DNA from: an uncultured Bdellovibrionales bacterium
GTDB lineage: Bacteria; Bdellovibrionota_C; UBA2361; SZUA-149; CAZDIO01
Reading direction: 5' to 3'
Assembly (NCBI GenBank): GCA_964505555.1
Contig: CAZDIO010000102.1
Span: 13,355 to 77,354 of the forward strand
DNA length: 64,000 nt
Under the pieces are notes generated by a model. It ran no database searches. It was not told the origin of the DNA and worked only from the letters and a program-made list of their open reading frames with translations. The translations under genes and the position numbers were made by a program. Below are positions 46,483 through 53,146 of the stretch, one piece after another. Position 1 is the stretch's first letter. Every line of letters begins with the position of its first letter.

Positions 46483-47196
46483 GTGGTGAAAGGGACAACG
46501 GAAAAATTAACTGAAGAGCAGATTCCCCTCGTAATTGAAAATATTCTTTATGCAAAAAAACTGGCGAGGCAGTTTTATCAACAACGAAGCCACTTCGGTT
46601 TCGATGTTGAGGATTTTGAAGGCGCAGCATTGTTTGGATTATGTGACGCTGCAAGGAGGTTTGAGCCTGATAAGACACTTCATTTTAGAACATTTTCCTA
46701 TTTTCGCATTCGGGGTGCGATGTATGATCTGCTGCGACATGGGGGGGGAATTTCGAAGAAACACTTCAAGTGTTTCATTGAAAATCGAAATCAAACGGGA
46801 GAGGGGACAAAACCTCGAGCAGAGGAAGAAGGGAGCCTCCCCTATTCATTTGCAAGAACTGCTGAGGAGTTATCGAGCATTATTGCCACGATTGAAGAGA
46901 TCGATATCGCTGTGCATGTCAGCACGGACAGCGAGATTCCTGAACTCAGCTACGCACGAGACCTAAATCCTGAAGAGATCAATACCATTCGTGCAACCCG
47001 GTCCTATATTAGAAAACTTATCTCTCAACTTCCCACTGAACAACGAACCGTAATTGAACTTCGCTACTACAATGGCGCTACCTTTGATGAAATTAGCGCA
47101 AATCTCGGTGGGCACTCACGGAGTTGGGTTTCACGAACCCATGTTCGAGCTCTTGATAATTTGCGAGGGATGATTCTTAGCGAAAGGAGAGTGTAA
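46483..47196 (+). CDS. fliA: Sigma-28-type (FliA/WhiG family) RNA polymerase sigma factor
   Basis: Region 2 (FDVEDFEGAALFGLCDAARRFEPDKTLHFRTFSYFRIRGAMYDLLR) and region 4 HTH (TVIELRYYNGATFDEISANLGGHSRSWVSRTHVRALDNLR). 237 aa. Confidence 0.8.
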   Translation: MVKGTTEKLTEEQIPLVIENILYAKKLARQFYQQRSHFGFDVEDFEGAALFGLCDAARRFEPDKTLHFRTFSYFRIRGAMYDLLRHGGGISKKHFKCFIENRNQTGEGTKPRAEEEGSLPYSFARTAEELSSIIATIEEIDIAVHVSTDSEIPELSYARDLNPEEINTIRATRSYIRKLISQLPTEQRTVIELRYYNGATFDEISANLGGHSRSWVSRTHVRALDNLRGMILSERRV

Positions 47197-48131
47197 TGAC
47201 ATCCTCAAAATGGAAAGGAATTTTTCTTGCGCTCGTAGCGTTTTTTCAGGTCAGTTGTAAAGAGACCGTTCTTCATAACTTAGATGAGGTGCGAGCCAAT
47301 CAGGTAAAAGTAACACTAGAGAAACGAGGAATTACTGCGCAAAAGCTTTTTGAAGGGAGCGGATGGAGTATTCGAGTCAAGCGTGCTGACGAAACAGAGG
47401 CACTCTCGATTCTTGAAGAAAGCAGAGTTCTCAAACGGAATCTCCGAACCCCGATAGAACCACCAAAGGGGCTTATTCCAAGCCGAGAGGAACGAGCATC
47501 ATTTTCAGAACGGCAACTGGCGGCAAGTTTAGAAAGTACTCTTGAGCGCTTACCCTATGTGCTAGAAGCTCGAGTTCATCTGAACTTAAATGCCGAAGAG
47601 AACCTTCAAATGGTTTTGCCAAAAGAGGGCCATACGGGAAGTGCTCTGATTGTCACCGATGATCATATGCCTGATCATTTAGCAATTCAAAAATCTCAAG
47701 TACAACAACTCATTGCAGGAGCATCAGGAGTAAACCCACAATCAATCTCGGTAGTAATCGCCAAAGCAAGTGCTGAAAACTACGCAGAGCCACAGATCCA
47801 TAAAGTAGCAAAGCCAGTAGAGACGACGAAAAAAGATACTCCCTCCCATTCTCCATCGTGGATAAAAAAGCTGATAGTGCATGCTCGACAGTATCAAACA
47901 TTTTTAATCTATCTCGCTGGGGTATTAATTGCAGTTCTTGCACTCCGATTGATTTTTCGAAAAAACCCATTTCGAAGTGAGCAAACAATACCGAGTTTTC
48001 AAATGCCTCCTCTGAAGAACTCAAAAAATACCGTCTCCTCTGGTGTTCTGGTCAACGGTACCCAACACGGAAATGGCAGTCAGTTTAAACTGCAACCAAA
48101 CAAACAACATGAAACATTGGAGGTGTACTAA
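47196..48131 (+). CDS. sctJ: SctJ (YscJ/PrgK/EscJ/CdsJ-family) type III secretion inner-membrane ring lipoprotein
   Basis: Lipobox FFQVSC, SctJ-conserved blocks (ARVHLNLNAEEN; VQQLIAGASGVNPQSISVVI) and a C-terminal TM. 311 aa, which is injectisome-size, not FliF-size. Its ATG overlaps the fliA stop. Confidence 0.8.
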   Translation: MTSSKWKGIFLALVAFFQVSCKETVLHNLDEVRANQVKVTLEKRGITAQKLFEGSGWSIRVKRADETEALSILEESRVLKRNLRTPIEPPKGLIPSREERASFSERQLAASLESTLERLPYVLEARVHLNLNAEENLQMVLPKEGHTGSALIVTDDHMPDHLAIQKSQVQQLIAGASGVNPQSISVVIAKASAENYAEPQIHKVAKPVETTKKDTPSHSPSWIKKLIVHARQYQTFLIYLAGVLIAVLALRLIFRKNPFRSEQTIPSFQMPPLKNSKNTVSSGVLVNGTQHGNGSQFKLQPNKQHETLEVY

Positions 48132-48132
48132 G

Positions 48133-52507: not shown

Positions 52508-52528
52508 TCTTAGCGCGCTGTATGGGAG

Positions 52529-53146
52529 GTGAAAATGAATATATCTTATAGAAAAATCTCTCTTCATCATTTAGCACTCTGGAGTTTTGTCTGTTTCATT
52601 CTTTTCTTGAGTACTGGCTGTATTTACCGAAATAAAAATAGCCTTACGGCTCATGAAGCCGTAACTCGGGAAACAAAGATGAAGTCACTCCTTGCTTTTA
52701 GTGTTTCACAGCTTCGAATCGGAGATGAAGTGGCACTTGATCGCGCCTATGCAACGCTTGAGCTTGCACGAGAGTTAGACCCAAACGATGCACGAGTGTT
52801 TGATGGTTTAGGAAGTGTGGAATGGCGTCGCGAAGGGTATAAGTTAGCGGAGTTCTACTTTAAAAAAGCGGTATCTCTTGATCCTAACTATTCTCGTCCG
52901 TATGCACATCTTTCGCTTGTTGCAGAAAGAAATGGTGATTATCAGGCAGCAAAAGAGCTCCTTCTAAAATCTCTTGAACTTAATCCTCTTAATTACCGGG
53001 CAAGAAACAACTACGCCGCCCTTCTTGTTCGTTACGGAAATCAAACAAGTAATGAACAAACGGCGTACTATGAGTTTCTAAAAGTTGCCCGAGGTGCTTC
53101 AAAAGAAGATCCCGTTCTTCAGTATAATCTAGGTCGGTTTGAGTAG
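52529..53146 (+). CDS. TPR-repeat lipoprotein
   Basis: Lipobox LSTGCIY. At least three TPR-like units (AYATLELARELDPNDARVFDGLG...; AEFYFKKAVSLDPNYSRPYAHLS...). Confidence 0.5.
   Translation: MKMNISYRKISLHHLALWSFVCFILFLSTGCIYRNKNSLTAHEAVTRETKMKSLLAFSVSQLRIGDEVALDRAYATLELARELDPNDARVFDGLGSVEWRREGYKLAEFYFKKAVSLDPNYSRPYAHLSLVAERNGDYQAAKELLLKSLELNPLNYRARNNYAALLVRYGNQTSNEQTAYYEFLKVARGASKEDPVLQYNLGRFE

Follow-up and report, generated by a model that had tools for sequence, protein, structure and literature searches.

A conserved non-flagellar type III secretion gene cluster of deep divergence in uncultured Bdellovibrio-like bacteria

Introduction

How the injectisome originated from the flagellum is a long-standing question, and the known early-branching systems, those of the Myxococcales, have lost the needle. 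The basal "Myxo" type III secretion system (T3SS) as well as the T3SS* of Myxococcus xanthus keep the core genes and the ATPase and are without secretin and SctF (PMC3459982, PMC10849154, PMC12428579). In this study, we analyzed a nine-gene cluster in a 64,000-nucleotide stretch (hereafter the window) of contig CAZDIO010000102.1 from an uncultured Bdellovibrionales bacterium (GenBank assembly GCA_964505555.1). The cluster was confirmed as a real, deeply diverged and previously undescribed relative of type III needle machinery in uncultured Bdellovibrio-like bacteria; full-text literature searches that combined Bdellovibrio, Bdellovibrionota or Oligoflexia with T3SS or SctV returned no description of a non-flagellar T3SS in these groups.

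Two further systems are relevant to its organization. In Chlamydia, sct genes are spread over several loci and the sigma-28 gene adjoins flhA; orphan flagellar FlhA, FliI and FliF are encoded next to the sigma-28 gene, alongside a complete non-flagellar T3SS. In the Hrp system of Pseudomonas syringae, the activators HrpR and HrpS act with sigma-54 to produce the alternative sigma factor HrpL, which in turn directs the T3SS genes, and sigma-54/FliA flagellar hierarchies are built in a similar way. An earlier note on this DNA, made from its letters and open reading frames (ORFs), had described the cluster as an injectisome-type operon headed by a sigma-28 gene, and its claims are taken up below where the results bear on them.

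Results and discussion

Gene content and conservation of the cluster

The locus covers positions 46483-53146 of the window. ORF calls were checked, and the nine co-directional, tightly packed genes of the earlier note were recovered at these coordinates, all on the + strand, with junctions ranging from a 26-nt overlap to a 95-nt gap. Six of the nine are unnamed or match family models only below cut-off. The genes are as follows.

46483..47196, +, FliA/WhiG-like group-3 sigma factor, 237 aa, at the head of the operon; matches Pfam Sigma70_r2 and Sigma70_r4, ribosome-binding site AAGGAGG at 46471-46477
47196..48131, +, SctJ inner-membrane ring lipoprotein, 311 aa; passes Pfam YscJ_FliF, with a lipobox and a C-terminal transmembrane segment
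48133..48408, +, small conserved protein, 92 aa, with a CxxxC motif; orthologues occur at the same position
48410..49333, +, putative N-terminal half of an SctQ/FliM-like cytoplasmic ring protein encoded by two genes, 307 aa; fold of the CheC/FliM-middle-domain type by AlphaFold2 and Foldseek
49308..49673, +, SpoA (FliN/SctQ C-terminal) domain protein, 121 aa; passes Pfam FliMN_C
49769..50071, +, helical protein, 100 aa, probable divergent subunit of the SctF superfamily (needle- or rod-like), from hhalign and position; no Sec signal
50100..50417, +, helical protein, 105 aa, predicted SctF (needle) homologue by hhalign; no Sec signal
50429..52507, +, SctV export-gate protein, 692 aa; FHIPEP, E 8e-164
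52529..53146, +, tetratricopeptide repeat (TPR) lipoprotein, 205 aa; multiple TPR Pfam matches and a canonical lipobox, LSTGC

At least 120 relatives of SctV, sharing 39-57% identity, were found, and the named ones come from metagenome-assembled genomes (MAGs) of Bdellovibrionota, Bdellovibrionales, Oligoflexia or "Deltaproteobacteria". Their gene order is shared by 12 independent loci; it is present in the window, in L001-L005, L118, L119, L123, L124, L091 and L098, and in part in L096. L001 lies on a 3.26-Mb contig of the Bdellovibrionota MAG GCA_046328905.1, and L091, L096 and L098 are metagenomic. The order runs from the sigma gene through SctJ, the small ORF, usually a protein of 220-300 aa, the SpoA protein, two proteins of about 100 aa, SctV and the TPR lipoprotein, often followed by a family-2 glycosyltransferase (GT2); L004 lacks the FliM_M-like gene. 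SctV identity among members is 33-59%, with no pair above 59% except identical duplicates. All loci are embedded among housekeeping genes, and orthologues of the window's HemB share contigs with several SctV genes of the family, which places the window in the same lineage as the other carriers. Because the order is conserved despite 33-59% SctV identity, in a housekeeping setting and on contigs with shared HemB, the cluster appears to be old, vertically inherited and under selection. The gene arrangement is not a matter of chance.

The carriers are flagellated, with FlgE and flagellin encoded on the same contigs as the cluster. The window's own flagellin gene (30396-31259, - strand) stands away from the cluster, as the earlier note had said, at a distance of 16 kb; a flagellin gene lies at most 16 kb away in three of the 12 loci, the other two being L118 (0.3 kb) and L005 (8.6 kb). 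The note had also listed a fliF gene elsewhere in the genome, together with an SctV clustering within FlhA, as evidence that would weaken its assignment; a fliF gene would not do so in bacteria that are flagellated anyway. The L118 flagellin (12761-14635, - strand) is 624 aa long and contains an FG-GAP insertion; its gene lies 0.3 kb beyond the TPR gene of the cluster and a gene for a 104-aa protein. On the L005 contig, FlgE stands alone (neighbouring stretch L122).

SctV and SctJ belong to the non-flagellar side

The SctV protein scored 513 bits with the hrcV model and 475 bits with the FlhA model, both below the strict cut-offs. The SctV versus FlhA phylogeny that the earlier note had proposed was computed by neighbour-joining from 94 FHIPEP proteins. 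Its references included 80 loci returned by a scan of GTDB genomes with SctV, which were generic FHIPEP matches with no family member among them, and were labelled by gene context as flagellar (55) or non-flagellar (27). The split between FlhA and SctV received 100% bootstrap support with full-length sequences, 98.5% with the N-terminal half and 93.5% with the C-terminal half. In all three cases, the family formed its own 100% clade on the SctV side, which upholds the non-flagellar assignment at 94-100% bootstrap. The clade probably lies at or near the base of non-flagellar SctV.

Five of seven class-signature columns are SctV-like. The protein also retains 54 of the 63 residues that are at least 97% conserved across all other FHIPEP proteins, including the equivalents of FlhA R147, R154, D158, K203, D208 and D249, which we take from the flagellar literature to be functionally critical. 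Family members carry inconsistent names in NCBI and JGI ("flagellar biosynthesis protein FlhA", "FHIPEP family type III secretion protein" and "type III secretion protein V"). This is an annotation problem, in that NCBI calls some members FlhA and the JGI names are split between FlhA and SctV/EscV.

The ring protein is SctJ and not FliF, as the earlier note had proposed. The SctJ model TIGR02544 is its best NCBIfam match, at 77 bits against an equivalog cut-off of 162. Family members are 263-311 aa long where called intact, in comparison with about 550 aa for FliF, and the protein is without the FliG-binding C-terminus. The lipobox Cys21 is invariant in the family and corresponds in the alignment to the Cys that is lipid-modified in YscJ and MxiJ. 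The protein has a single C-terminal transmembrane segment and, after it, a basic cytoplasmic tail of 20-55 aa (about 55 in the window) that is absent from YscJ and MxiJ. At the sctJ position of L124 (7450-8440), there is a 490-nt gap and a 166-aa ORF without a Pfam match, so that sctJ may be disrupted or miscalled in this locus.

Two needle-like small proteins

The 105-aa protein bears out the needle-like small protein of the earlier note: its family aligned with a five-member SctF set (YscF, AscF, MxiH and two others) at 92.3% probability (hhalign; E 5.6e-7, 55 columns), and all controls, namely SctI, YscX/O/E/G and FliE, stayed below 2%. The 100-aa protein is the most conserved small protein of the cluster, and its family comprises 307 representative clusters at 50% identity with a conserved C-terminus, SN(I/V)EKSEHESKMAAIRN(I/V)R. 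An AlphaFold2 model from a 150-sequence alignment contains a 44-residue C-terminal helix with a predicted local distance difference test score (pLDDT) above 90. This family matched the 105-aa family at 96% and a subgroup from complete T3SS clusters at 99%, and that subgroup in turn matched SctF at 80% (hhalign). Taken together, these profile comparisons suggest that both small proteins are members of the SctF superfamily, the 100-aa one less certainly. Profile searches of both against PDB sequences gave only noise, and scans with hidden Markov model (HMM) families returned no match for the 92-aa, 307-aa, 100-aa and 105-aa products.

A split SctQ and accessory proteins

An SctQ-like protein and a separate SpoA protein, claimed in the earlier note, are likewise consistent with our results. 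The SpoA protein scored 27.9 bits with the SctQ model TIGR02551 and 18.3 bits with the FliN model. The 307-aa protein has no sequence family, and hhalign comparisons with SctQ, SctK, SctL, SctD and FliM were negative. In Foldseek searches with its AlphaFold model (6-sequence alignment; pLDDT 50-76 over residues 40-200), the top 37 consecutive PDB matches were all FliY, FliM middle domain, CheC or CheX, with E-values down to 3.5e-9 and target-normalised TM-scores of 0.65-0.70. L005, L088 and L091 have here a gene that is joined to the SpoA domain, and the fused set matched YscQ (hhalign 82.7%). The fold and the YscQ-matching fused orthologues together indicate that the 307-aa and SpoA proteins probably constitute a split SctQ/FliM-like ring protein.

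The 92-aa protein was listed as an ORF at 48043-48408, and its orthologues instead fit a start at ATG 48133. Orthologues in L001 and L002 share 38-44% identity, ORFs of similar size occupy this position in L004 and L118, and hhalign found no match to SctK/L/O/X/E/G/F/I. A chimeric query of the 92-aa and 307-aa proteins matched only itself in a large protein database. An anti-sigma (FlgM-like) or chaperone role of the 92-aa protein would be conjecture. The TPR lipoprotein of the earlier note was verified by its repeats and lipobox; its best NCBIfam score, 44.9 bits and below cut-off, was with the PilW model of type IV pili, and its gene always lies directly 3' of sctV, with orthologues in all loci.

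The sigma factor of the operon

A FliA-like sigma gene leads the operon and abuts sctJ in every locus examined. The name sigma-28 in the earlier note did not hold: the best NCBIfam match, FliA_WhiG (TIGR02479), reached 83.8 bits against a cut-off of 189.6, and the cluster sigmas form a separate clade (98% bootstrap) apart from all 40 flagellar FliA proteins in the tree. By sequence, the protein is a FliA-like group-3 sigma factor and not a demonstrated sigma-28. The sigma tree resolves the same two subclades as the SctV tree, and this congruent topology indicates that the sigma factor co-evolved with SctV.

In the window, the stop codon of the sigma gene and the start codon of sctJ overlap in TAATG (47194-47198), with a ribosome-binding site, AAAGGAG, upstream. 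The overlap reported earlier is thus real and the two genes abut in every locus, but its exact 1-nt form is confined to this genome, and the junction elsewhere is a gap of 4-63 nt or an overlap of 41-47 nt. The description of a sigma-headed operon needs a similar amendment, because the sigma gene is first everywhere but is preceded by a conserved control region with sigma-54-like and activator-site elements (see below).

Canonical sigma-28 promoters (TAAA-N15-GCCGATAA) gave no meaningful sites in a scan of the window and five loci. One internal element was noted.

49705..49712, +, tentative internal FliA-type -10 box AACGATAA, with GGAAA 15 nt upstream; from octamer enrichment, weak at single loci

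Across 22 loci, GCCGATAA-like octamers are enriched 5' of the 100-aa gene, with a mean best match of 5.82 in comparison with 5.35 +/- 0.13 in shuffled sequences, and none of 2000 shuffles reached the observed mean. This hints that the operon's own sigma factor may drive the needle-like genes from a GCCGATAA-like box.

A conserved control region upstream of the operon

The region 5' of the sigma gene is conserved and newly recognised here, having been absent from the earlier note. Three elements were distinguished in the window.

46308..46324, +, palindrome 1, TGAGGCAAATTGCCTCA, putative activator site of the enhancer-binding protein type; GAGGC-N6-GCCTCA-like 16-mer
46328..46343, +, palindrome 2, GATTCAAAATGCATCA, degenerate weaker copy read by eye, 19 bp after site 1
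46398..46412, +, sigma-54-like -24/-12 motif TGGCATGACCTTGCA, with a non-canonical 9 nt between GG and GC

The elements TGGCA(C/T) and TTGC(A/C), which perfectly match both sigma-54 elements, occur at a conserved position in 10 of 12 loci. The motif has the form TGGCAC(G)-N2/3-TTGCA and lies 57-91 nt 5' of the sigma start (162 nt in L003, whose start call is uncertain), and the DNA flanking it is unconserved across loci. In nine of the 10 motif-bearing loci, 16-bp palindromes with the consensus GAGGCAAATTGCCTCA were found at 69-71 and/or 89-90 bp; no palindrome was found in the remaining motif-bearing locus, L123. Palindrome 1 lies 89-90 bp 5' of the motif in the window, L002, L004, L088 and L091. 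A second palindromic site at 70-71 bp is present in L001, L002, L088, L091, L119 and L124, and in other loci a palindromic site lies 69-78 bp upstream of the motif (78 bp in L003). This layout resembles that of an enhancer-dependent promoter, for which activator sites about 70-150 bp upstream are expected. Elsewhere in the window, a canonically spaced sigma-54-type motif, TGGCACGAGAAGTGCT (31467-31452, - strand), is located about 190 nt 5' of the flagellin gene and directly after a gene for an SLT lytic transglycosylase (31486-32490).

A missing export core and how it might be supplied

We used the T3SS core set of SctC, J, N, Q, R, S, T, U and V (Abby & Rocha) as reference. Of this set, SctV, SctJ and SctQ are present, and SctR/S/T/U, SctN and SctC were found neither in the window nor in the 10 kb around the cluster at any of 12 loci. 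In the window, phmmer was run with 23 Yersinia Ysc and 20 Escherichia coli Fli queries (L115-L117) against all ORFs of at least 40 aa at E<0.01, and it detected only FliC, FliA-like, YscJ-like and YscV-like proteins and none of SctC/D/K/L/N/O/R/S/T/U, in agreement with the earlier note's finding of no secretin, ATPase or SctRSTU. Likewise, phmmer found no SctR/S/T/U, SctN/L/O, SctD or secretin within 10 kb of the cluster in the 12 loci. The encoded parts could provide a ring, a nonameric gate, a sorting platform and a filament. Because the SctRST channel, which is the base for rod and needle assembly, the SctU switch and the ATPase are not encoded, the module cannot work alone, and the core would have to be supplied in trans. 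The two alternatives raised in the earlier note, a system split over several loci or a reduced or hybrid arrangement, are still the two leading readings.

We regard the cluster, with moderate confidence, as a module of a deep-branching non-flagellar T3SS whose core is encoded at a second sct locus, dedicated to it, in another part of the genome, as in the multi-locus systems of Chlamydiae. A second dedicated locus is preferred because multi-locus and orphan-SctV arrangements are common. Orphan SctV genes were observed in MAGs of Polyangiaceae and "delta proteobacterium" (L010, L015, L027, L074 and L078), with no other sct gene within 10 kb (some flanks are shorter); L010, L015, L027 and L074 form a 98% clade, and L078 groups with the SctV of Archangium (L008, L012). 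In the chlamydial MAGs L011 and L052, SctU alone adjoins SctV.

Under this reading, an activator would bind the two palindromes about 70 and 89 bp 5' of the -24/-12-like promoter and switch the operon on. The sigma factor would be made together with SctJ from the adjacent or overlapping genes and would drive late genes, possibly from the GCCGATAA-like box before the needle-like genes. SctJ, SctV and SctQ may then form a basal body in the inner membrane, through which the two SctF-like proteins would be exported to build a short rod or needle. Without a local secretin, the rod or needle could terminate in the periplasm or be anchored to the outer membrane via the TPR lipoprotein. The likeliest use is protein export or a surface structure in contact between bacteria or between bacterium and host. 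The injectisome function named in the earlier note is a different matter, since no secretin, translocon, tip or effector is present and injection into a host is not supported.

Several points weigh against a module served by a second sct locus. The split-locus step is an assumption, and no locus with the missing sct genes was found among the loci examined. The retained J, Q, F, V and sigma genes come from three blocks of a complete relative's operon, which has the look of selective retention and not of one operon that simply broke in two. The missing R, S, T, U, N, L, O and P all have flagellar paralogues, which fits a hybrid equally well. The place of the family among SctV groups is supported at 59% only, and neighbour-joining was the sole method of tree building. 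For the 100-aa protein, assignment to the needle subunits is indirect, with a direct hhalign probability to SctF of only 3% and no Foldseek match for its AlphaFold2 model; among the HMM checks proposed earlier, YscJ_FliF, SpoA (FliMN_C) and FHIPEP pass but T3SS_needle_F was matched by none of the 150 representatives of the 100-aa family. The FliM-like fold of the 307-aa protein rests on a low-confidence model (overall pLDDT 47). Finally, the spacing between GG and GC is 8 or 9 nt and variable among loci, in comparison with the canonical 10, and such spacing is not expected of a working sigma-54 promoter.

In a hybrid, the cluster would keep only the parts that set specificity, namely SctJ as ring scaffold, SctV as gate for substrate docking, SctQ as sorting platform and the filament subunits, and borrow the generic engine, FliPQR/FlhB and FliH/I/J, from the flagellum, with the FliA-like sigma tying it to the flagellar programme. 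We consider this reading less likely, yet a serious rival. It would account for the composition of the cluster, in that the lost inner-membrane and cytoplasmic parts have flagellar paralogues, the retained parts are those that define ring, docking and cargo, and the retained genes come from three distinct blocks of the operon in the complete relative. No gate or ATPase gene was detected near any of the 12 loci or in the 64-kb window, the carriers are flagellated with flagellin within 16 kb in three of 12 loci, and both the FliA-like sigma and the FliM/FliY-type middle domain of the SctQ half have a flagellar character; Chlamydia offers a mirror precedent. However, an export core shared by two T3SS machines has never been demonstrated, and split T3SS loci are common in other phyla. 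SctD and secretin are also missing and have no flagellar substitute, so that "missing" does not equal "borrowed". SctV and sigma are as distant from FlhA and FliA as any injectisome protein, with no sign of flagellar co-adaptation, and canonical sigma-28 promoters were not found in the window and five loci. A doubtful proposition, in our estimation, is that of a modular "parasitic" T3SS, that is, a secretin-less, SctF-bearing early injectisome offshoot built around a flagellar FliPQR/FlhB core and FliHIJ, with a co-evolved sigma factor. If true, this would provide the first instance of an export engine shared between two type III machines and a close model of the flagellum-injectisome intermediate postulated by Abby & Rocha. 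The consistent absence of gate and ATPase genes near the loci raises the question of whether two T3SS can share an export core.

It is improbable that the cluster is a relic of a complete T3SS or has been put to non-secretory use, for example as a membrane scaffold or signalling complex. In favour of this, the loci are without essential core genes nearby, L124 has only a 166-aa ORF without a family match at the sctJ position, L004 has no FliM_M-like gene, and the short and long T3SS loci of M. xanthus were once annotated as relics (PMC3459982). Against such decay stand the intact ORFs and constant gene order at 33-59% SctV identity, the retention of universal SctV functional residues, the strong conservation of the 100-aa protein in 307 representative clusters, the conserved upstream control region and the co-evolution of sigma and SctV. 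Relics do not last in such a condition across divergence of this extent; a non-secretory use is conceivable.

A lineage-specific flagellar export apparatus in which cluster proteins replace FlhA and FliF under a flagellar sigma-28 is highly improbable, as its supports (the NCBI pipeline label "flagellar biosynthesis protein FlhA" on several members, FliA/WhiG as best sigma model, flagellin nearby in three loci and the FliM-like middle domain) are opposed by the grouping of SctV with non-flagellar SctV at 94-100% bootstrap against 55 FlhA proteins that are all in flagellar gene contexts, a short SctJ-type lipoprotein in place of a FliF of about 550 aa, the lack of FlhB, FliPQR, FliG, rod, hook or Mot genes in the cluster, small proteins that match SctF and not FliE or rod proteins, and a sigma clade separate from 40 flagellar FliA.

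Genomic surroundings

One gene downstream of the cluster may belong to the operon.

53330..54337, +, family-2 glycosyltransferase, possibly the last operon gene; Pfam Glycos_transf_2, after a 183-nt gap

In L001-L004 and L091, a GT2 orthologue of 35-52% identity likewise comes after the TPR gene. Genes for GT2, a PIG-V-like membrane protein of the mannosyltransferase family and an Rce1-like CAAX protease lie downstream of the cluster in the window (53330-57695), L002 and L124, and this recurrence suggests a linked cell-surface glycopolymer function.

Upstream of the cluster, at a distance of 1.1 kb, the gene at 44021-45376 (+) encodes a Ser/Gly-rich protein of 451 aa that includes a glycine-zipper segment, belongs to no family and shows no obvious signal peptide. 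The gene is not adjacent to the cluster in other loci, and its product is a possible lineage-specific substrate. A hairpin element of about 90 bp is present in two copies (45391-45479 and 46143-46232) with inverted arms of 33-36 bp (TTGAACACAGAGTTTCACAGGGTTACACAGAGT), and the 0.66-kb segment between the copies holds a gene for an XRE/HigA-like helix-turn-helix protein (45733-46026), just 5' of the control region. The pair could be an element resembling miniature inverted-repeat transposable elements or repetitive extragenic palindromes, or a terminator pair. Rfam and tRNA scans of the window found nothing. A replication initiator gene of the RPA family adjoins parA/parB (36658-38235, - strand, and 39131-40814, + strand), and the housekeeping genes hemB, hemD, icd and a ubiD-like gene are encoded on the same 81-kb contig; this might point to a secondary replicon or a chromid, or the genes may be no more than the partition region of a chromosome.

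Comparison with known systems

A ring protein encoded by two genes, the second with a SpoA domain, is also seen in HrcQA/HrcQB of P. syringae and in FliM/FliY, and the predicted CheC/FliM-middle fold is that of FliM and FliY. Unlike these proteins, those of the cluster are fused in L005, L088 and L091, share no detectable sequence similarity with them, and had no CheY-binding N-terminal peptide identified in them. The control region recalls the Hrp cascade, in that activator sites and a -24/-12-type promoter precede an alternative sigma factor that would be dedicated to the T3SS. However, the sigma factor here is FliA-like (group 3) and not of the extracytoplasmic function type, it is co-transcribed with structural genes, and the promoter spacing is 8-9 and not 10 nt; an activator gene for the palindromes was not identified.

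With Chlamydia, the cluster would share scattered T3SS loci, a sigma-28-type gene linked to the FHIPEP gene, and a partial paralogous set beside a complete one. In Chlamydia it is the flagellar set that is partial and the non-flagellar one that is complete, whereas the reverse would hold here. Chlamydial SctV loci (L011, L052) have SctU next door and loci of the present family never do; the chlamydial NCBIfam models NF004571 and NF004572 gave weak matches.

The metagenomic contig Ga0326597_10002537 (L102 and L109, merged to 27,156 bp) carries a complete T3SS of high G+C content in which SctJ, L, N, R, S, T, U and V were identified by phmmer, with O, P, Q and the remaining genes assigned from position and size; a secretin was not detected on this contig. 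A 113-aa protein with the C-terminal motif of the 100-aa family, which belongs to the subgroup matched at 99% above, stands exactly at the YscF position of a YscE-F-G-H-I-J-like order; after it come genes for a TPR chaperone, an SctI-like protein and SctJ, and a second motif-bearing protein of 280 aa lies between SctU and SctV. Both clusters encode SctJ and SctV, the C-terminal motif ...EHE(T/S)(R/K)MA(A/V)(V/I)RN... and an internal FliA-like sigma factor (25122-25802 on Ga0326597_10002537). In contrast to the window, the sigma gene there follows SctV instead of coming first, SctL/N/R/S/T/U are complete, and SctV is about 37% identical to that of the window.

The M. xanthus T3SS* and the Myxo group are similarly deep-branching non-flagellar derivatives from a predatory-type "delta" lineage whose functionality was once doubted, and they likewise have SctJ, SctQ and SctV and no secretin, tip or translocon in the locus. 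The T3SS* keeps SctRSTU and the ATPase without SctF, whereas the present cluster is the reverse, with two SctF-like genes. It also differs from the Myxo group in having its own FliA-like sigma factor and TPR lipoprotein, and its SctV forms a separate 100% clade with no specific grouping with Archangium SctV (L008, L012). The family, which is widespread in metagenomes (SctV in at least 120 clusters, the 100-aa protein in 307 representative ones), bears on the origin of the injectisome through a probably basal or near-basal SctV clade and SctF-like subunits without a local secretin, while keeping such flagellum-like traits as the FliA-type sigma and the FliM-type middle domain. In its local gene content, the cluster matches the predicted ancestor that had no secretin and formed an SctF-based periplasmic or extracellular structure (PMC3459982).

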